From the NCBI GenBank assembly GCA_046704725.1, contig JBJKRI010000003.1, positions 1-64,000 of the forward strand: 64,000 bases of DNA. Reading direction: 5' to 3'. How positions within the stretch are numbered: the first letter of the stretch is position 1; each line of letters starts with the position of its first letter. The notes under the pieces were generated by a model. The model searched no databases, was not told where the DNA came from, and saw only the letters and a list, made by a program, of their open reading frames with translations. Positions 2,899 through 44,540 of this stretch are shown here, piece after piece. Origin of the DNA: Candidatus Woesearchaeota archaeon (GTDB lineage: Archaea; Nanobdellota; Nanobdellia; Woesearchaeales; SKIA01). The position numbers and the translations under genes are program-made.

Positions 2899-4011
2899 AT
2901 GCTTCCGGAGTGGTTCGAAAGGAAAAGGGCGGCGGCCAGGGCCGGCTACGCCTCGAAGAAGACCCCTCGTCTCGCCTACGGCCTCACCATCCGACTCAAT
3001 AGCCGCGCCCTCGTCCTCGACGGCAATGAAGCAACCGACAGCGAGCAGGTCGTCACGCTCGAGCATGAGGACTGCCGGATCGCCAGCCTCTTCGACATGC
3101 TAAATGATCCACAGGTCAGGCAGCATCTCTTCAGCACAGAGCCAGCAGAGCGCACGCGCATGGACGACTTCTCCGACGCCTTCTTCGACATCGGCCTTGT
3201 CGTCATCGTCCCGCCCGGAAAGGACGCCACGCTCACGCTCACGCGCACCATCACAAGCCAAGTCTTCAACGAGCGCACCCTCATCCTCTGCGGCAAGGGC
3301 AGCACCCTCACGCTCATCGACCGCTACCAAGGCGACTGCACATTGCGCGCCGGCGTCGTCGAAGCGATCCTCGAGGACGACGCCACGCTCCGCTACGCGT
3401 CCGTCCAGCACCTCGGAAAGGACGCGGTCGACCTCTCGAGCTACCGAGCGAGATGCGGAAAGGACGCGAAGGCCGACTGGTTCGTCGCGAGCATCGGTTC
3501 TGCCTTGTCGCGCGCGGAGGTCAGCACGCGTCTTGCAGGCGACGGCGGGAAAGCGCGCAGCTACGGCGTCTTCCTCGGCGACGGCACGCAGCAATTCGAC
3601 CTGTCCGCAGCCACTTTTCACGAGGGCGACCACACCGAATCCGACATGTATACGCGCGGCGTTCTCGACGGCAAGAGCAAGGCCGTCTATCGCGGCACGA
3701 TCGACATCGCCGCGAACGCCAACGGCTGCGACGGCTACCAGAAAGAGGAGACCCTGCTCGTCTCCCCCGACGCCGCCGCCGACGCGATACCCAATCTCGA
3801 GATCCGCAACAACGACGTGCGCTGCAGCCACGGGGCGACCATCGGTCGTGTCGACGAGGAGCAGCTCTTCTACCTCACCAGTCGCGGCATCCCGCGGAAC
3901 GAAGCGGTGCGCATGCTCATCGAGGGCTACTTCGAGCCGCTCACCACGCGCCTGGACTGGCCCGCTCTCTTCGAGCAGGTCAAGCCCCTGGTGGAGGCGA
4001 AGATCGCATGA
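2899..4011 (+). CDS. sufD: Fe-S cluster assembly protein, SufD/SufBD family
   Basis: C-terminal ADAIPNLEI.NNDVRCSHGATIG.VDEEQLFYL.SRGI is the SufD-type ending. Confidence 0.85.
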   Translation: MLPEWFERKRAAARAGYASKKTPRLAYGLTIRLNSRALVLDGNEATDSEQVVTLEHEDCRIASLFDMLNDPQVRQHLFSTEPAERTRMDDFSDAFFDIGLVVIVPPGKDATLTLTRTITSQVFNERTLILCGKGSTLTLIDRYQGDCTLRAGVVEAILEDDATLRYASVQHLGKDAVDLSSYRARCGKDAKADWFVASIGSALSRAEVSTRLAGDGGKARSYGVFLGDGTQQFDLSAATFHEGDHTESDMYTRGVLDGKSKAVYRGTIDIAANANGCDGYQKEETLLVSPDAAADAIPNLEIRNNDVRCSHGATIGRVDEEQLFYLTSRGIPRNEAVRMLIEGYFEPLTTRLDWPALFEQVKPLVEAKIA

Positions 4012-23627: not shown

Positions 23628-24170
23628 TCATGGTATGGGATACGCTCGGGTGATGCCGCCGATAGCGACCCGGGCGATCTCCTCGCCCGAAGGTTGGCGC
23701 TGCTCGTACCACACGATGTGGGGTTCCACACCGATCTGCTTCTCATCGGATTGACGGACGATCCCTGCGAGGTATATCGGTTCCCTGTGTTGCAGCGCGA
23801 GATAAAGGATGTTCTGCGCGCGACGCAGGACGGCGCCTCCGCCGACGGAGACGATGGTCCGGTCAGGTTCCCTGAAAGGAGCACGCACGCTGACGGAACT
23901 CGAGAGATACGAATTGAAGTGCTGCGTGACCTGCCCCCGAACGAATACGGGCGATCCCAACTCTGGTTGCCCTTCCAGAGCAGGGTACTTTTCATGGATA
24001 CGCTCGCACAGCGTCGCATAGTTCGCAGGGGCGCCATCAGCGAGCCTCAATAATGAATACAGGTCGTCAACACCCTCGGCACGCAAGGGACGCGTCCACA
24101 ACTCCGCAGTATCAGCCACTAAAAAAATCCAGTCCCGCCCCTCGTATTTAGGTGTTGCGGCTATCCGCAC
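23628..24170 (-). CDS. hypothetical protein
   Basis: 180-aa ORF filling the gap between neighbours; no motif recognised. Confidence 0.5.
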   Translation of the reverse strand: MRIAATPKYEGRDWIFLVADTAELWTRPLRAEGVDDLYSLLRLADGAPANYATLCERIHEKYPALEGQPELGSPVFVRGQVTQHFNSYLSSSVSVRAPFREPDRTIVSVGGGAVLRRAQNILYLALQHREPIYLAGIVRQSDEKQIGVEPHIVWYEQRQPSGEEIARVAIGGITRAYPIP

Positions 24171-24514
24171 CAGACGTCGCCGTAATGGAAGTCGGTCTCC
24201 TCCAGGTCGGCGTGGGGCGTGCCGTGCTCCTCGAAGTTCGCCGCCATATGCTCGTTGGGCTCGGTGGTCATGCCTTCCTCGATGAGCAGCCGGCGCTGCT
24301 TGCGCATGAGGTCGTCGATGTCGTCGCCTCCGCGCACCTGCAGCGCGAGCATGTCCGTGTACTGGTAGAACAGGAGGTTCATGATGCCGTGCTGCATCAT
24401 GTAGATCTTGAAGCGCGGCGATGCGGTCTCCCGGCGCAGTACCTTGTATATGGGGTCGTCCCAGTTGTACTCGCCGTACAGCGTGTATTCCGTCACGCTC
24501 TTATGCGTAGTCAT
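24161..24514 (-). CDS. degenerate 4Fe-4S dicluster (GlcF N-terminal-like) protein lacking ligand cysteines
   Basis: YTLYGEYNWDDPIYKVL..E..SPR aligns to CxxCGxCxxxCP.Y...E..SPRG; FYQYTDMLALQVRG aligns to FY.CxxCxxCxxxC. Confidence 0.7.
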   Translation of the reverse strand: MTTHKSVTEYTLYGEYNWDDPIYKVLRRETASPRFKIYMMQHGIMNLLFYQYTDMLALQVRGGDDIDDLMRKQRRLLIEEGMTTEPNEHMAANFEEHGTPHADLEETDFHYGDVWCG

Positions 24515-25667
24515 GCAGCCTCCCCCGGTTGAGGATGTCGTTGTAGTCGTACTCGTCCTTGAGCTTGATGAGCGTGTTCCGCAATCGCTGCGGCACGTGC
24601 TTCTTCTTGACCAGTCCGTAGCCGAACTGCCCGGAGACATCCCCGCCCAACGCCTTCACCTTCTCGTAGAAGGCCGTGCGGTCCTGCTCCCCGAAGAACG
24701 GGTGCACGATGCCCATGCCGATATGGCTGACAGCCGGCAGTTCTTGTTCCTCGCACCACGCGAGCAGGTCGTACATCTTCTCGGGCGCGACGGAACAGTC
24801 CTCGATGATCGGATGGCCCGCGCGCATCGCCGCGTCCCACGCCTGGTCGCGCCCCTTCCAGATGCGGTCCTGGCTCTCCGGATTGACGATCTCCCCCTTG
24901 TCGCCCTCGTACTCGACGAGCAGATGATGCTTCTCCTCGATGCCGGACAGTCGGCTCATCTGCGGATTCATGTACTCCAGGCTGAGAACCGTGAGGTCCT
25001 CCTTTTTCTCGTCCACAGCGGACAACAGTTCGTGCAGCTGATCGAACGGCAGCACGTCGGTGCTGCGTTTCTCGATGATAGGATACACGCGGATCTTCGC
25101 GCTGATGATGATGGCGCACGTGCCTTCCATGCCGATGAACTTCGGTTCTTGCTCCGGGTAGTGCTTTCCCGTTCCGTCGATGACCTCGAGCTCCATGACG
25201 TGCTTTCCCAATCGCCCGTGCTTGTGGCTGCGCCGGTCCATCTGGTTCATCGCGAGCAATGCGCCGATGGTCGCTACGTTCTTGCTCCCGGGCACGACGG
25301 GAAACGTGTGTCCGTGCTTCTCCAGGACCCGTTGCAGGTCCGACAGGACGACGCCTGTTTCCACGCGCACCCACCCCTCCTTGAGGTTGAGCGTGCTGAT
25401 GCGGTCGAAGTGCGCCATGTCGAGCACGATGGAGTTCTCCGGAACCACCATGCCGAGCGGATTCGCCCCGAGGCCCCGCGTGACGACGGGGATGTTCGTG
25501 CGGTTGGCGTACACGAGTATCTGCCGCAGGTCTTCGGCATTCTTCGGGAACAAGACGATGCGCGCTTTTCCTTCCAGTCCGCTCGCGTCATAGCCGTACG
25601 CGAGCAGGTCGTTGGGATTGTCCAGCGCGTTCTCCACGCCCAATAACGGTCCGAAGTGCTCTCTCAT
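24501..25667 (-). CDS. FAD-binding oxidoreductase, GlcD / D-lactate dehydrogenase-like (divergent)
   Basis: Y.YDAS, V..RG.G, ATIG, G.EGT..II, H.G.G..HP, SGQFG.G, D...ILN.G. Confidence 0.85.
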   Translation of the reverse strand: MREHFGPLLGVENALDNPNDLLAYGYDASGLEGKARIVLFPKNAEDLRQILVYANRTNIPVVTRGLGANPLGMVVPENSIVLDMAHFDRISTLNLKEGWVRVETGVVLSDLQRVLEKHGHTFPVVPGSKNVATIGALLAMNQMDRRSHKHGRLGKHVMELEVIDGTGKHYPEQEPKFIGMEGTCAIIISAKIRVYPIIEKRSTDVLPFDQLHELLSAVDEKKEDLTVLSLEYMNPQMSRLSGIEEKHHLLVEYEGDKGEIVNPESQDRIWKGRDQAWDAAMRAGHPIIEDCSVAPEKMYDLLAWCEEQELPAVSHIGMGIVHPFFGEQDRTAFYEKVKALGGDVSGQFGYGLVKKKHVPQRLRNTLIKLKDEYDYNDILNRGRLHDYA

Positions 25668-25981
25668 CGGTCGTCCCCCGAACCCTTGATGGTCCCGTTC
25701 GCGAATCGTTGTTCCAGCTTCTCGAGCATGAGCGCACAGAGCTGTTCGAGCGAGTAGCCGATCTCGTGCGCGTACGCGATCACGTATGTCAGCACGTCGG
25801 CGAGCTCTTTCGCCACATTCTGGTCGGTGGGCTTGTTCGGATCCTGGCGCAGCTGCTTCTTGCGCTTCTCGGCGACCTCTCCCGCTTCTCCGCAGACGGC
25901 GAGCGCGAGAAAGGTCTTGACGTCCTCCGCGCTGTAGCGCATGGTCTTGAGCGCCCGTTCCTCTAGTTCGTCCAAGTTCAT
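25664..25981 (-). CDS. MazG-like nucleotide pyrophosphohydrolase
   Basis: GEAGEVAEK.KK...ELADVL.Y...KL..R...G.I.GSGD.R. Confidence 0.9.
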   Translation of the reverse strand: MNLDELEERALKTMRYSAEDVKTFLALAVCGEAGEVAEKRKKQLRQDPNKPTDQNVAKELADVLTYVIAYAHEIGYSLEQLCALMLEKLEQRFANGTIKGSGDDR

Positions 25982-26646
25982 ATCTCGACGAGCACCTCCG
26001 AGAGTTCCATGACCTGCGCCGAGGTGTTCCGCTTGAGATGCAGGTAGTCCTCGGGCGAGTCGGTGATGATGAGTTGCGCCGGTGCGGTGCGGGCGCGCCG
26101 CATCGCGAGCTTCGCCGCTAATCGTGGGCTGTTGTTGATGAGTCCTGTCGACGTTCCCAGGCATTGCGTTCGTTCCTTGCACTCGTCGAACTCCTTGAGG
26201 TGGAATCCCGCCCGTACGAGGATCTCGCGCGGCTGGTGCACGATGCTGTTGCGCCGCACCTGCGTCGTATTGTCGTGGAAGCACGCTTCTGCGTTGTTGA
26301 AGCGCTGCACCTTGGCGATGTTCTCGTGCACGACCTGTGTGGTGTGCTTGGCTTCGATGCCTGGATAGAAGCGCCGGAGCATGTAGACCGCTTCTGGGCT
26401 CGAGCTGATGACGGTCTTGACCTTCATCGCTCTCAATCGCGCCAGGAGCTTCTTGCGGTGCTCCTCGAACTTCTCGTGGTATCCCTCGTCCCACAACGCC
26501 CAGCCGGTGTTGAGGTCCTCGACCAGGTCGAAGGCGATGCCGAAATCGCTCAGGAGGCTCTTCCAGTTCACGACCAGGTCCGGGAAGTACTTCGTGAGCG
26601 TGCTTCCTGGATAGTAGATGGTCTTCTTGAGCGAGAAGAGGGGCAT
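25978..26646 (-). CDS. degenerate CCG-domain (GlcF/HdrB-like) protein lacking ligand cysteines
   Basis: YYPGS, LNTG, SSPEA, FHDNT, QCLG and TDSPED occupy the YFPGC, CCG, CPxC, HDxC, CCG and TxCPxC positions. Confidence 0.8.
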   Translation of the reverse strand: MPLFSLKKTIYYPGSTLTKYFPDLVVNWKSLLSDFGIAFDLVEDLNTGWALWDEGYHEKFEEHRKKLLARLRAMKVKTVISSSPEAVYMLRRFYPGIEAKHTTQVVHENIAKVQRFNNAEACFHDNTTQVRRNSIVHQPREILVRAGFHLKEFDECKERTQCLGTSTGLINNSPRLAAKLAMRRARTAPAQLIITDSPEDYLHLKRNTSAQVMELSEVLVEI

Positions 26647-26668
26647 GGAGGAGGACGGCGAAACTGCG

Positions 26669-27391
26669 TTAATATAGGTTATGGTCGCCCTGTATGGCAG
26701 AGTAGAAGCGCTCCATGTGAGCGGTCCGGAGGTACTCGAGGCGGAACAGGGTCTCCTCAGCATCGGGCGAGCGTAACGGCTCAATCTCGTTGATGTACTT
26801 GGGAATCGTCGCGAATGGCGGTTGCTGCCTCCAACTCTGTACAAGGTTCGCGAGGCGATAGGCCGCTGTATTGACAAGCCGTTCACGTTTCGACCTTCTC
26901 GTAGCCATCGTCACTTGTTCGGACGCGATGCTGACGATACCCCGCTCGGCCGCACGCTCCCACAAACCGCTCGAGCCGACGATGCTCTCCGTCCAAGACG
27001 TGGGTTCCCCGAGCTGGGCGCGGACTTTGGCATCCATTTCCGTTCCCCAGTAGAGCATGATCGCAGGAAGGTCATCCGCTCGATATCGGAATCGATTGAT
27101 GTTTGCGCGTACGTCCCTGAACTCGCTCAGTGAGAGGCTCGCGAGCCGTACACCTCTCAAGTAATCAAATGTTGGATGGTTGAACGTTTCGGATCGGACA
27201 TCCGCTTCAGGTCCTGCGAAAGCTGCGATCCACCGTCCGGCCTCCTGCAGTGCACGATAATCTACCCGATGCCCGGGCGCGAATCTCGAGCTGCTGAGGA
27301 CTGGGACTTGATTAGGGACAGCTCCCCAGTCGCTCACAAGGTGCTGCACTCTGCGCTCCGGATCCTGTACGAGCATCAATCGGAGTTGCAT
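26669..27391 (-). CDS. hypothetical protein
   Basis: 240-aa ORF with atypical codon usage and a TTTATA box upstream. Confidence 0.55.
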   Translation of the reverse strand: MQLRLMLVQDPERRVQHLVSDWGAVPNQVPVLSSSRFAPGHRVDYRALQEAGRWIAAFAGPEADVRSETFNHPTFDYLRGVRLASLSLSEFRDVRANINRFRYRADDLPAIMLYWGTEMDAKVRAQLGEPTSWTESIVGSSGLWERAAERGIVSIASEQVTMATRRSKRERLVNTAAYRLANLVQSWRQQPPFATIPKYINEIEPLRSPDAEETLFRLEYLRTAHMERFYSAIQGDHNLY

Positions 27392-41936: not shown

Positions 41937-42935
41937 TCAAGTGTCTTTCGGCAGCACGAGGGGCTTTTTTCCCACGATGATGATGTTCTCGTGCCGTACG
42001 CCCTCGTCGTAGTACAGTCCGGGCTCGATCGTCACGACCATTCCTTCCTCCAATGTCATGTCGCTGCGCTCTGACAGGTTCGGCGCCTCGTGGATGTCCA
42101 GTCCCACGCCGTGCCCCAACGAGTGGATGAGCCCGTGCTCGTCGTCCGTCGGAAAGCCGCGTGTCTCCAGTTCTTTCGTGGCGTACGCGGCGATGTCGGC
42201 CACCTTCGCTCCGGGAACGCATTTCTTGACGCACGCGTCGTGGACTTCTTTCACGGCGTCGAGCATCTTTTGCGCGTTTGCGTCGTCCCCAACAATCACT
42301 GTTCGGGTCATATCGCCGTAGTATCTCGTGCGTTCCGATTGTGGGAAGATATCGATGATGACCGGTCCTTCTTTGATGGCACCGGTTCCGCGGTGGTGCG
42401 GCAATCTCGTCTGTCCTGCCGAGCTGATGATGAGGTCGGGGCAGTCGTAGCCATGCCGGATGAGCTGCGAGCGCGCCTCCGCCTTGAGGGCTTCGCTCGT
42501 GAGCGGCTCCCCCTTCCAATGGAGGATACCGTCCTTGAGTTCGGCTTCCTGCAAGCGCTTCTCGATGAGCGCGATGGCTCCGGCCGCTTCTTCCTGCGCT
42601 TCCTCGATCGCTGCCAGTTCATCTTCATTCTTGATGCGTCGTTCGGGGAAGACCTCGCGCACGACCTCCGCTTTCCCGGGGATACGGTCCACAATGCCGT
42701 GCGGAAAGTCGAACGGCACCTTCGCCTCTTTGACGTTCTTGAGCGCTTCTTTCAGGCTCGTGAGTTCGCGCACCTCGATGTCGCCGACGATCTCCTCTCT
42801 CGCCCGCAGGAATTCGAAGCCGGGCACCCAAAGAGTGCGTTTCTTGTCCTCGATGTAGAGCACATCGACATCGCTGTTCCAGCGGCAGCGATAGTAGATG
42901 TCCGCGCTGTCCGCGCGGCCGAAGAGCACGAGCAT
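41937..42935 (-). CDS. Xaa-Pro aminopeptidase (M24)
   Basis: PHH.G, IIDIFP, YYGDMTRT, HSLGHGVGLDIHEAP, TIEPGLY, GVR.E. Confidence 0.93.
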   Translation of the reverse strand: MLVLFGRADSADIYYRCRWNSDVDVLYIEDKKRTLWVPGFEFLRAREEIVGDIEVRELTSLKEALKNVKEAKVPFDFPHGIVDRIPGKAEVVREVFPERRIKNEDELAAIEEAQEEAAGAIALIEKRLQEAELKDGILHWKGEPLTSEALKAEARSQLIRHGYDCPDLIISSAGQTRLPHHRGTGAIKEGPVIIDIFPQSERTRYYGDMTRTVIVGDDANAQKMLDAVKEVHDACVKKCVPGAKVADIAAYATKELETRGFPTDDEHGLIHSLGHGVGLDIHEAPNLSERSDMTLEEGMVVTIEPGLYYDEGVRHENIIIVGKKPLVLPKDT

Positions 42936-43022
42936 GCCCGTGCCGTGGCCCGCCGCCTCATAAAGCTTTGGCACTGGAAAGACCGCGTGAACGTTTTTAT
43001 AGCGCCTTTCCACCCTCTCCCC

Positions 43023-44540
43023 ATGCTCCCTCTGCACGTCACCTTGTCCTATTACAAGCGCGCGGACATCCGCAAGGCCATGGCCGAGCAGTGCCGCGGC
43101 AAGGAGGTCGCCATCAAGTACGGTAATGGCTTCGGAAAGCGTCCCGACATGGTCGTCTACGACAGCGACATCCTCTCTTTCGCCCAGAAGAAAGCGACGA
43201 GCTTCCACGTGAGCGAGGAGACCTGGAGCAATCCCATGCAACTCGCTCCGGGCATGCGCAAGGCGGACATGGACGCGTTGCGCGTGGGCTGGGACCTCGT
43301 GCTCGATATCGACTTCCCCGTCTGGGAGGCGACGCGCGTCATCGCCGACGCACTCTGGAAGCAGCTTTTGGAGGAGGGCGTGCCTGAGAAGGCCATCACC
43401 GCGAAGTTCTCCGGCAACAAGGGCTTCCACATCGCTGTGCCCTTCGAGGCATTTCCCGACGCGGTGCTCGACGAGGACGGGAAAGAATTGCTCGTCTCCG
43501 ACCTGTTCCCTGACGGCGTGCGCAGCATCCTCGGTTACCTAGTCTCCCGCGTGGACGGTCCCGAGAACGGCTTCTCCCTTTCCGAGCGGCTCGTTAAGGA
43601 TTTAGGTGCGGACGCGTTGCGCTCCATGCTCGTGGAGGTCTGCGAGTCCTGCGGGAGAAAAGCGCCTGGCCGCGCGGTCGAGGGCAACGAGTTCGTCTGC
43701 GAGCGCTGCGGCTATCGCGAGCGAAAGGACGTCGATTACATGGACTGCCCCAAGTGCAAGACCATGGGCCGCACGACCTTGCTCACGCCCGTCGGTCGCG
43801 CCAACTCCGAGCCGTGCAAGTGCGGCTCCAAGCGCTTCCGCAAGAAGGTCGACCTCGCGGTCGACACCATGCTCGTCTCCTCGCGGCACATGTATCGCCT
43901 GGCGTGGAGCCTCCACGAGAAGAGCTTCGACGGGAAAAGAGCGCTTGTCTCATTGCCGATCCCGCCGCGGCGCATGCACGATTTCGACAAGGAAGAGGCC
44001 GGCGCGAAGCACGCGAAGACCGATACCCCCTTCCTCTCCCGTGACGTCCCGCGCGATTGCGCCTCCGCATTGCTGCAGCGCGGCCTCGCCTACCGCGCCC
44101 CCGACGCCGAGGACAGGCCCTCGTTCGCGGAGATCGAGTGGGCCGGCGACGCCGCGCCGGAGGAGGCGTTCCCCCCGCCCATCAAAAAGATGCTCACGGG
44201 CATGGAGGACGGACGCAAGCGCGCCTTGTTCGTGCTCACGAACTTCCTGCGCAGCGTGGGCTGGTCCTACGAGATGATCGAGGCGCGCCTCGACGAGTGG
44301 AACAAGGCCAACCCCGAGCCCTTGCGCGAGGTCGAGCTGCGCGGCCACATCCGCTACCACAAGCAGAAGGGCCAGAACGTGTTGCCGCCGAACTTCGACA
44401 ACGACATGTACTACAAGGATCTCGGCGTGCTCGAGCACGACGAGTTGAGCCGGCGCGTCAAGAATCCTGTGCAGTACGTCCGTCTCAAGATGAAGCAGGG
44501 CGGCTCGCGCGAGCAGACCACATCCTCCGGGCGTGCGTAG
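43023..44540 (+). CDS. fused DNA primase PriS-PriL (DPANN type)
   Basis: WDLVLDID, KFSGNKGFH and R...SLHEK (PriS); FPP.I...G..DGRKR..F.L..FL...PPN...KNP..Y (PriL C-terminal domain). Confidence 0.9.
   Translation: MLPLHVTLSYYKRADIRKAMAEQCRGKEVAIKYGNGFGKRPDMVVYDSDILSFAQKKATSFHVSEETWSNPMQLAPGMRKADMDALRVGWDLVLDIDFPVWEATRVIADALWKQLLEEGVPEKAITAKFSGNKGFHIAVPFEAFPDAVLDEDGKELLVSDLFPDGVRSILGYLVSRVDGPENGFSLSERLVKDLGADALRSMLVEVCESCGRKAPGRAVEGNEFVCERCGYRERKDVDYMDCPKCKTMGRTTLLTPVGRANSEPCKCGSKRFRKKVDLAVDTMLVSSRHMYRLAWSLHEKSFDGKRALVSLPIPPRRMHDFDKEEAGAKHAKTDTPFLSRDVPRDCASALLQRGLAYRAPDAEDRPSFAEIEWAGDAAPEEAFPPPIKKMLTGMEDGRKRALFVLTNFLRSVGWSYEMIEARLDEWNKANPEPLREVELRGHIRYHKQKGQNVLPPNFDNDMYYKDLGVLEHDELSRRVKNPVQYVRLKMKQGGSREQTTSSGRA

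Follow-up and report, generated by a model that had tools for sequence, protein, structure and literature searches.

Introduction

The [4Fe-4S] cluster of the primase protein PriL is conserved from archaea to humans. Its role is disputed, and it has been regarded as structural, as a redox switch for DNA charge transport, or as dispensable in vitro. A monomeric enzyme in which PriS and PriL are fused into one chain has been described for Nanoarchaeum equitans and for DPANN cluster 2 (PMC3914693, PMC7414124, PMC10250227). Such fusions are consistently described with an Fe-S-binding domain (PMC10250227, among others). Here we analyze a gene of this type on contig JBJKRI010000003.1 of a Candidatus Woesearchaeota archaeon (assembly GCA_046704725.1). 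The first 64,000 nucleotides of this contig are referred to as the window, and the gene lies at 43023-44540 on the forward (+) strand, stop codon included. At all four positions where cluster-ligand cysteines are found in most homologues, its 505-amino-acid (aa) product, P0002, has another residue.

The N. equitans fusion, NEQ395, binds its cluster through C289, C364, C376, and C384 (PMC10250227). Each of the four single Cys-to-Ala mutants lost its color and its A410 and was still active, and two of them exceeded the wild type (PMC10250227). The same paper terms the contribution of the cluster "enigmatic" and also cites growth data on yeast cluster mutants. When PriS of Sulfolobus solfataricus was combined with a chimera of PriX and a PriL lacking its C-terminal domain (CTD), primers were synthesized at the wild-type level (PMC5700102), which provides a precedent for cluster-free initiation. 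The evidence for dispensability in vitro considered here comes from engineered proteins, namely these NEQ395 mutants and this chimera. A literature search that left supplementary alignments aside found no report of natural Cys-less fused primases.

Results

Homology and architecture of P0002

The gene lies in an open reading frame (ORF) at 42090-44540 (+). Its start is most likely the ATG at 43023, the first in-frame ATG past a divergent gene, and the frame is open across 505 codons. This extent was assigned from the ORF and from homologues of about 460-575 aa among those listed. With P0002 as the query, 2705 of the 8000 candidates scored matched at E ≤ 1e-3, and 562 matches at this threshold were found in 1.84 billion representatives. 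The 120 homologues listed had E ≤ 5.5e-109, query coverage of 94-100%, and lengths of 459-574 aa. Those with a named source were from Woesearchaeota, Nanoarchaeota, or DPANN, and many carry both PF01896 (PriS) and PF04104 (PriL).

A phmmer search of the Protein Data Bank with P0002 alone gave a single weak zinc-finger match. P0002 also matched the LigD Prim-Pol family (E = 0.006, below the curated cut-off) and, weakly, PriCT_1 in Pfam (E = 0.18). A profile built from 135 family members matched eukaryotic PriS chains (E ~1e-6) and PriL of Pyrococcus abyssi (9f26_B, E = 1.2e-6). A full-length AlphaFold2 model had a predicted local distance difference test score (pLDDT) of 93.5. Its Foldseek matches were archaeo-eukaryotic primase (AEP) enzymes at E values from 4e-6 to 1e-3, which included Prim-PolC, the Pyrococcus furiosus primase, the LigD polymerase domain (PolDom), and human and yeast Pri1.

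Conserved columns, Foldseek, and the profile matches all point to a PriS-type AEP catalytic domain at aa 1-345 (43023-44057, +). Motif I is D95/D97 (43305-43313, +), motif II is SGNKGFH at aa 130-136 (43410-43430, +), and motif III is D281 with R288/H289 (43863-43889, +). In the alignment of the 135 sequences, D95, D97, K128, G131, H136, R288, and H289 show no variation, and D281 is at least 90% conserved. A linker between the PriS-like and PriL-like parts follows at aa 346-378 (44058-44156, +). It is among the least conserved regions of the protein, and the AlphaFold2 model has a mean pLDDT of 63 in the block at aa 361-370. Alignment, profile, and predicted fold assign the remainder to a PriL-CTD-like helical domain, free of Cys, at aa 379-492 (44157-44498, +).

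P0002 shares with NEQ395-type enzymes one polypeptide that has an AEP domain at the N terminus and a PriL-CTD-like domain at the C terminus, together with full-length sequence homology and the AEP motifs (DxD, SGxxGxH, and a downstream D and R-H). By homology, architecture, and motifs, P0002 is a member of the DPANN fused primases that lacks their usual Fe-S-ligand feature. A previous interpretation of this DNA, made from its letters only and called here the sequence-only reading, had proposed a PriS-PriL fusion with intact PriS catalytic motifs. The AEP fold matches, the matches to PriS and P. abyssi PriL, and the seven invariant residues with the nearly invariant D281 agree with it.

The four ligand columns

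The segment singled out in the sequence-only reading, 44169-44485, corresponds to aa 383-488 of P0002. Its motifs are FPPPI at aa 383, PPNF at 455, LGVL at 467, ELSRR at 474, and KNP at 480. In most of the 120 nearest homologues, the equivalent motifs are FPPC, PPNC, G[VI]C, and [NS]LC..KNP. Alignment with these DPANN fusions places P386 (44178-44180, +) in the column of the first ligand Cys, F458 (44394-44396, +) in the second, L470 (44430-44432, +) in the third, and S476 (44448-44450, +) in the fourth. In the family profile, the counterparts of these columns are LFPPC, PPNC, LC, and HC..RNP in P. abyssi PriL (9f26_B), whose cysteines we take to be its cluster ligands. The columns are spaced by 72, 12, and 6 residues in P0002 and by 75, 12, and 8 in NEQ395. 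From the column alignment and the similar spacing, the four positions are homologous to the cluster ligands. P0002 has ten cysteines, at positions 24, 207, 210, 226, 229, 242, 245, 265, 267, and 346, and its last 159 residues contain none, as the sequence-only reading had noticed for the domain.

In a MAFFT alignment of 267 homologues, which bears out the substitutions first seen in the single sequence, the four columns read Cys at every position (CCCC) in 190 sequences and are Cys-free in 57. Since the third Cys stands one position later in some sequences (GVKC), the columns were also scored with a shift of one to two residues. Among the 260 complete CTDs scored in this way, 198 have four Cys, five have three, four have one, and 53 have none. 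The sequences with at most one ligand Cys, 57 in number, are called Cys-less below and are the set used for all counts of replacements and motifs.

The replacements follow a pattern. P0002-P0028 and P0033, 28 sequences in total, have FPP[P/A/T/M], PPNF, [L/F/M], and [S/T] at the ligand columns. The same four-fold replacement in these 28 close sequences and in six of six other genomes of the family is not due to chance. It also speaks against an artefact of assembly, binning, or reading frame, since the 28 are independent database proteins from several sources and the frame of P0002 is open over its full length; such an artefact has a next to negligible probability. Across the 57 Cys-less sequences, column 2 holds F (39 sequences), Y (17), or I (one), and columns 3 and 4 are mostly L (27) and S (32). 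The replacements are not random, and the obvious reading of these residues is that an aromatic side chain would fill the cavity of the cluster.

Predicted fold of the CTD

A separate AlphaFold2 model of the CTD (aa 376-505, 130 residues) had a pLDDT of 93.8 and was compared with 48,161 chains using VIA-align. The best matches were the Fe-S domain of yeast PriL (6di2_A; Z = 8.8, root-mean-square deviation (rmsd) 3.7, 118 residues aligned), PriX of S. solfataricus (5of3_C; Z = 7.7, rmsd 3.5, 90 aligned, 24% identity), and human PRIM2C (8d0k_E; Z = 7.0, rmsd 3.8, 111 aligned). Photolyases and cryptochromes came next (Z ~4.4-5.0), as expected for the PriL-CTD fold, and pRN1 (3m1m) was matched weakly (Z = 3.9). 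With Foldseek, each of the 11 top-ranked matches (E = 0.5-1.6) was either a PriL Fe-S domain or the PriL chain of a primase complex. VIA-align and the sequence profile together support assigning this domain to PriL. The sequence-only reading depended on the region aligning to the PriL CTD. It does so in the P. abyssi profile match, and the predicted structure it had called for resembles PriL-CTD and PriX best.

Cys-less primases in related genomes

The primase gene was searched for in 40 GTDB relatives. The ligand cysteines are lost in seven of seven genomes of the GTDB family to which the window's genome belongs (f1, this genome included). Four genomes of the same genus have Cys-less CTDs with PFLS or PFFS in the ligand columns, and a further member of the family (G006) has TFLT. 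Another, G005, encodes a 471-aa primase with FPAV, PPNY, and GLL and no ligand Cys. In contrast to the family, CCCC was found in each of the 22 genomes examined from the order's other families. Counted outside this tally were nine genomes with a CTD match at a locus that was not read, two genes cut at contig ends (one of them, in G020, with a CTD fragment on a separate contig), and one genome, 79% complete, without a match. The open frame of the primase is intact in six family genomes (the window's own, G000, and G001, G002, G004, G005, and G006).

Among the same-genus genomes, G003 has a primase match (L004, G003:C23:131-1567, -) with one in-frame TAA, which may be a sequencing error or mark a broken copy.

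On a wider scale, 150 representatives clustered at 50% identity comprised 111 with four Cys, three with three, 29 with at most one, and seven that were too short. The best 80 loci from the GTDB species collection comprised 69 with CCCC, six with four Cys and a shifted third, one truncated, and four Cys-less.

Many records of metagenome-assembled genomes with the DPANN-type fused primase are titled "uncultured Methanosarcinales archaeon", and one is titled "Alphaproteobacteria bacterium" (L041, L045, L047, L051-L053, L055, and others, together with L075). These bins are probably mislabelled or contaminated.

Searches for a second primase

The genome assembly contains 1,183,702 bp and is 99.69% complete. 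A PF04104 search of this genome gave no match, and the control search was positive in four archaea. A PF01896 search found P0002, weakly, and a second AEP on contig C6. Because PF04104 is blind to the divergent CTD, hidden Markov models (HMMs) of the family CTD and of the family PriS were built and run with --max on the 15,340 ORFs with 40 aa or more in all six frames. The P0002 gene was the sole significant match to both (E = 2.5e-51 and 3.8e-103). The next-best ORFs had E values of 3.2 and 0.28, and no second PriS or PriL-CTD was found among the 15,340 ORFs. The sequence-only reading had allowed that a canonical priL elsewhere might supply the function; none was found in this nearly complete genome by PF04104 or by the family HMMs. 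Judged by these sequence searches, P0002 is the only archaeo-eukaryotic replicative primase of the genome.

Two other genes were considered. The second AEP (G000:C6:159222-160172, +; L001 1072-2013) is a 313-aa ORF in an open frame of 317 aa and reaches the PF01896 cut-off. Inspection of its sequence suggests that it looks like a LigD polymerase-domain protein of non-homologous end joining (NHEJ). The other is a Toprim_4 (DnaG-like) gene at C5:146602-146787 with a score of 40.6 bits. The presence of these two genes favors a different reading of the locus, in which the CTD is a decaying remnant under relaxed constraint and initiation has passed to the DnaG-type Toprim protein or to the LigD-PolDom-like AEP. 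However, DnaG is general in archaea, and the AEP on C6 reads as an NHEJ-type protein. A preprint on Nanobdellota (10.64898/2026.05.13.725050) also counts DnaG among the core genes.

Constraint on the Cys-less CTD and its priming motif

The decay of the CTD is also contradicted by its conservation. In the 19-sequence Cys-less clade that holds P0002, pairwise identity averages 0.72 in the CTD, 0.66 in the N-terminal part of PriS, 0.62 in its C-terminal part, 0.53 in the linker, and 0.40 in a zinc-ribbon-like insertion of PriS. The corresponding values in a Cys-bearing comparison group are 0.64, 0.58, 0.56, 0.39, and 0.36. The CTD ranks highest in both groups and therefore shows no sign of relaxed constraint. 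From these identities, the Cys-less CTD is under continuing purifying selection and is not decaying.

A motif that would serve initiation is also retained. It comprises D396-G397-R398-K399-R400...F403 (44208-44231, +) and was read from conserved columns. In the Cys-less sequences, G397, K399, R400, and W426 are kept in 57 of 57, whereas 56 keep D396, 56 keep N427, and 52 keep F403. All 57 have R or K at position 398, with R in 40 sequences and K in the other 17. G397 and R400 are also invariant in the 135-sequence alignment. R398, R400, and F403 stand at +12, +14, and +17 from ligand column 1, the offsets of R301, R303, and F306 in NEQ395 numbering, and by this offset they would correspond to those residues. 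In NEQ395, the double mutation R301A+R303A abolishes priming and spares elongation, and the single mutations R301A, R303A, and F306A strongly reduce priming and not elongation (PMC10250227).

With a CTD that is conserved better than any other region of P0002 among the Cys-less clades, an initiation motif that is kept, and a frame intact in six family genomes (and interrupted by the single TAA in the G003 match), a decaying CTD is hardly likely.

The eight-Cys insertion in PriS and the possibility of another metal center

The PriS domain contains an insertion at aa 207-267 (43641-43823, +) with four Cys pairs, C207/C210, C226/C229, C242/C245, and C265/C267. Its family consensus, CxxC..CxxC..CxxC..CxC, is shared by most members, the Cys-containing homologues included. 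Based on the Cys positions, the consensus, and weak profile matches to zinc-ribbon proteins and eL43 (E = 0.03-0.9), the insertion is predicted to form two zinc ribbons.

G005, which belongs to the same family as the window's genome, has a 471-aa primase (L033 888-2303, -) that lacks the insertion altogether.

These eight cysteines are relevant to a reading in which the CTD still holds a metal center or a cluster. It would do so through non-Cys ligands, for example His472, Asp473, and Glu474 in EHDELS, or through cysteines donated from elsewhere, either by the PriS insertion or by a partner protein. The Cys-less clades have H-D-E-L-S where Cys-containing homologues have P-D-x-L-C, and the insertion makes eight Cys available, which both agree with this reading. 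However, the insertion is equally present in Cys-containing homologues and looks like a zinc ribbon, so it is not a compensation for the lost ligands, and G005 has a Cys-less CTD without it. The Pro, Phe, Leu, and Ser replacements, with an aromatic residue at the second site in 56 of the 57 Cys-less sequences, resemble the filling of a cavity and not ligation. We also know of no [4Fe-4S] site in which all four Cys ligands have been replaced. Taken in both of its forms, with non-Cys ligands or with outside Cys donors, a remaining metal center is quite improbable.

History of the loss

A FastTree phylogeny of 260 sequences placed the Cys-less forms in 20 maximal clades, with a minimum of 17 state changes. 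The resulting count of 17-20 Cys-less lineages is probably inflated by tree error. Several of the clades are well separated and have different residues in the ligand columns, S/A-Y-x-x in some and P/T-F-L-S in others.

The nearest clades were analyzed with IQ-TREE. In the whole-protein tree, four CCCC sequences (P0031, P0032, P0034, and P0037) join a nine-sequence TFLS clade (P0021-P0028 and P0033) with an SH-aLRT value of 99, and this combined group is sister to the 19-sequence PFLS clade that holds P0002 (SH-aLRT 100). The approximately unbiased (AU) test rejected monophyly of the 28 Cys-less sequences (p = 0.017), for a group that was named after the tree was seen. A tree of the CTD, with the ligand columns removed and 110 columns used, instead united all 28 Cys-less sequences (SH-aLRT 99). 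Mean identities show the same incongruence. In PriS, the TFLS sequences are 0.64 identical to the four CCCC sequences and 0.44 to the PFLS clade, and in the CTD these values are 0.60 and 0.62.

Two histories are both possible for this incongruence: parallel loss with convergence in the neighboring residues, or an old exchange of a Cys-less CTD module between lineages. As to whether the two nearest Cys-less clades descend from one common loss, the whole-protein tree with its AU test disagrees with the CTD-only tree. Over the whole family, we lean toward recurrent loss of the cluster in DPANN fused primases, which would have converged on F or Y at the second ligand position, in cells that would replicate with a wholly cluster-free primase.

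Other Fe-S proteins and oxygen

The sequence-only reading had stated that the SUF genes look intact, and two SufBD-core genes were found in the genome, of which one lies at 3259-3927 of the window. It had also suggested that the loss of cysteines might be a trend across Fe-S proteins such as XPD, Nth, and ABCE1. This part did not hold. ABCE1 has both ferredoxin-like Cys motifs with the eight Cys of its Fe-S domain, the Fe-S region of XPD still has its four Cys, and C-x6-C-x2-C-x5-C is intact in Nth and in a MutY-like glycosylase. The genome also encodes at least three radical-SAM proteins. With these cysteines retained, the loss is primase-specific.

The idea that the genome economizes on Fe-S proteins in general was considered as well and is ruled out by the two SufBD-core genes, the radical-SAM proteins, and the intact motifs of the four enzymes.

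Within 24161-26646, which the sequence-only reading had compared with the primase, the window encodes an FAD-linked oxidase (24504-25667, -; PF01565 and PF02913). The adjoining 302-aa ORF (25981-26886, -) had no Pfam match and may encode a Cys-poor protein of the CCG type.

Exposure to oxygen could be a driver of cluster loss. Fe/Mn superoxide dismutase (SOD) is present in seven of seven f1 genomes and also in 14 of 34 searched genomes of other families, several of which have CCCC primases. Because the f1 genomes share ancestry, the distribution of SOD is no test of oxygen exposure; it is compatible with such a driver and does not discriminate.

Outside the window, the Nth gene (G000:C3:118571-118978, -), with its Fe-S Cys motif intact, adjoins a divergent Fe/Mn SOD gene (119194-119448, +).

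Gene start and neighborhood

On the opposite strand, a divergent ORF at 41937-43430 overlaps the 5' portion of the long frame 42090-44540. Its translation reads as an M24 Xaa-Pro-peptidase-like protein. A TATA-box-like element, TTTTTATA, was read at 42994-43001 (+), 21 nt 5' of the primase ATG, and this placement suggests a leaderless or near-leaderless archaeal transcript. The divergent M24-peptidase-like gene starts near the primase ATG, so the short intergenic region would hold both promoters.

Discussion

The best explanation of this locus is a single-chain PriS-PriL fusion that serves as the sole replicative primase, has lost the [4Fe-4S] cluster of its CTD, and primes without a cofactor there. 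From the sequence comparisons and structure models, we give this explanation a probability of roughly 85%. In the proposed mechanism, the N-terminal AEP domain would carry out catalysis, and a flexible linker would tether the PriL-CTD-like helical domain to it. The DG[RK]KR..F patch of the CTD may hold the initiating nucleotide or the 5' end of the primer. The cluster, which staples this domain in eukaryotes and other archaea, would have been lost, with Pro, Phe, Leu, and Ser in place of its ligands. The space of the cluster would most likely be filled by hydrophobic or aromatic packing, with Phe and Leu in the cavity, and priming would proceed without a cofactor or redox-active center in the CTD. 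This agrees with the central proposal of the sequence-only reading, an Fe-S-free replicative primase, which is supported by sequence, phylogeny, and fold prediction; that the domain binds no iron or cluster and that the enzyme primes are both what we infer from these.

Several points weigh against this explanation. Measured alone, P0002 falls below the cut-offs of the PriL families, with 15.5 bits for PF04104 (cut-off 22.4, E = 0.011, aa 376-448) and 16.2 bits for NCBIfam PriL NF002588 (cut-off 439, E = 0.005, aa 379-494). The PF04104 search missed the CTD of P0002 itself, so it excludes only a canonical PriL, and the assembly consists of eight contigs and is not closed. The DnaG-like Toprim gene may provide a second priming activity. 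In Foldseek, no match of the CTD model reached E ≤ 0.001 (E = 0.5-2.5), and the VIA-align Z of 8.8 falls in a range that the tool flags as possibly common for helical models. AlphaFold2 omits cofactors, and its alignment included Cys-containing homologues, so a confident fold is no proof of cluster-free stability.

If a cluster-free primase is correct, these genomes amount to a natural experiment, in which a whole archaeal family and many other DPANN lineages depend for replication on a single primase devoid of cluster ligands, while Fe-S biogenesis and repair enzymes are kept. If the loss is recurrent, the cluster would be dispensable in vivo. It would then be a structural element and not a redox switch that is required universally, and Cys-less enzymes would be cofactor-free, oxygen-insensitive model primases. 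P0002 would offer a single-chain, probably air-stable primase for biochemistry. Matched natural pairs are also possible, with P0002 set against Cys-bearing relatives such as P0031, to which it is ~43% identical in PriS and ~58% identical in the CTD. Over the full length, identity to relatives that bear the cluster ligands is 45-49%.

The closest described systems are NEQ395 and the fusions of DPANN cluster 2 and Undinarchaeota. Like P0002, they have an N-terminal AEP domain, a linker, and a PriL-CTD-like domain, and are the only AEP replicative primase. The DG[RK]KR..F patch of P0002 corresponds, by offset, to R301, R303, and F306 of NEQ395. In contrast, NEQ395 binds a [4Fe-4S] cluster via four Cys, and P0002 has a non-Cys residue at each of these positions. 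The two also differ in length, since NEQ395 has 393 aa and P0002 has 505 aa with the eight-Cys, double zinc-ribbon-like insertion in PriS.

With the PriL/PRIM2 CTD of PF04104, P0002 shares the fold and the motif frame FPPx...PPNx...KNP. It differs in having no ligand cysteines and no PriL N-terminal domain, and in scoring below the Pfam cut-off. The PriCT-1, PriCT-2, and helix-bundle domains of plasmid and viral primase-polymerases, such as that of pRN1, are likewise cluster-free helical domains on an AEP that aid initiation, and they have been proposed as homologues of the Fe-S_N sub-domain of PriL (PMC5862659). They occur in mobile elements, whereas the P0002 gene is chromosomal and is conserved by vertical descent as the primase of a cellular lineage.

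For the CTD by itself, PriX of the S. solfataricus PriSLX complex is a close parallel. It too is helical, cluster-free, and related to PriL-CTD, and it provides the site for the initiating nucleotide (PMC5700102). PriX is a separate third subunit beside a cluster-bearing PriL, whereas the domain in P0002 is fused and no PriL was found in the genome by the searches above. PriX also corresponds only to the N-terminal sub-domain (PMC5862659), whereas P0002 keeps the whole CTD, including the loops of ligands 2-4. Sequence and model together support the view that P0002 acts as a fused PriS-PriL primase whose initiation domain is cluster-free and resembles PriX.

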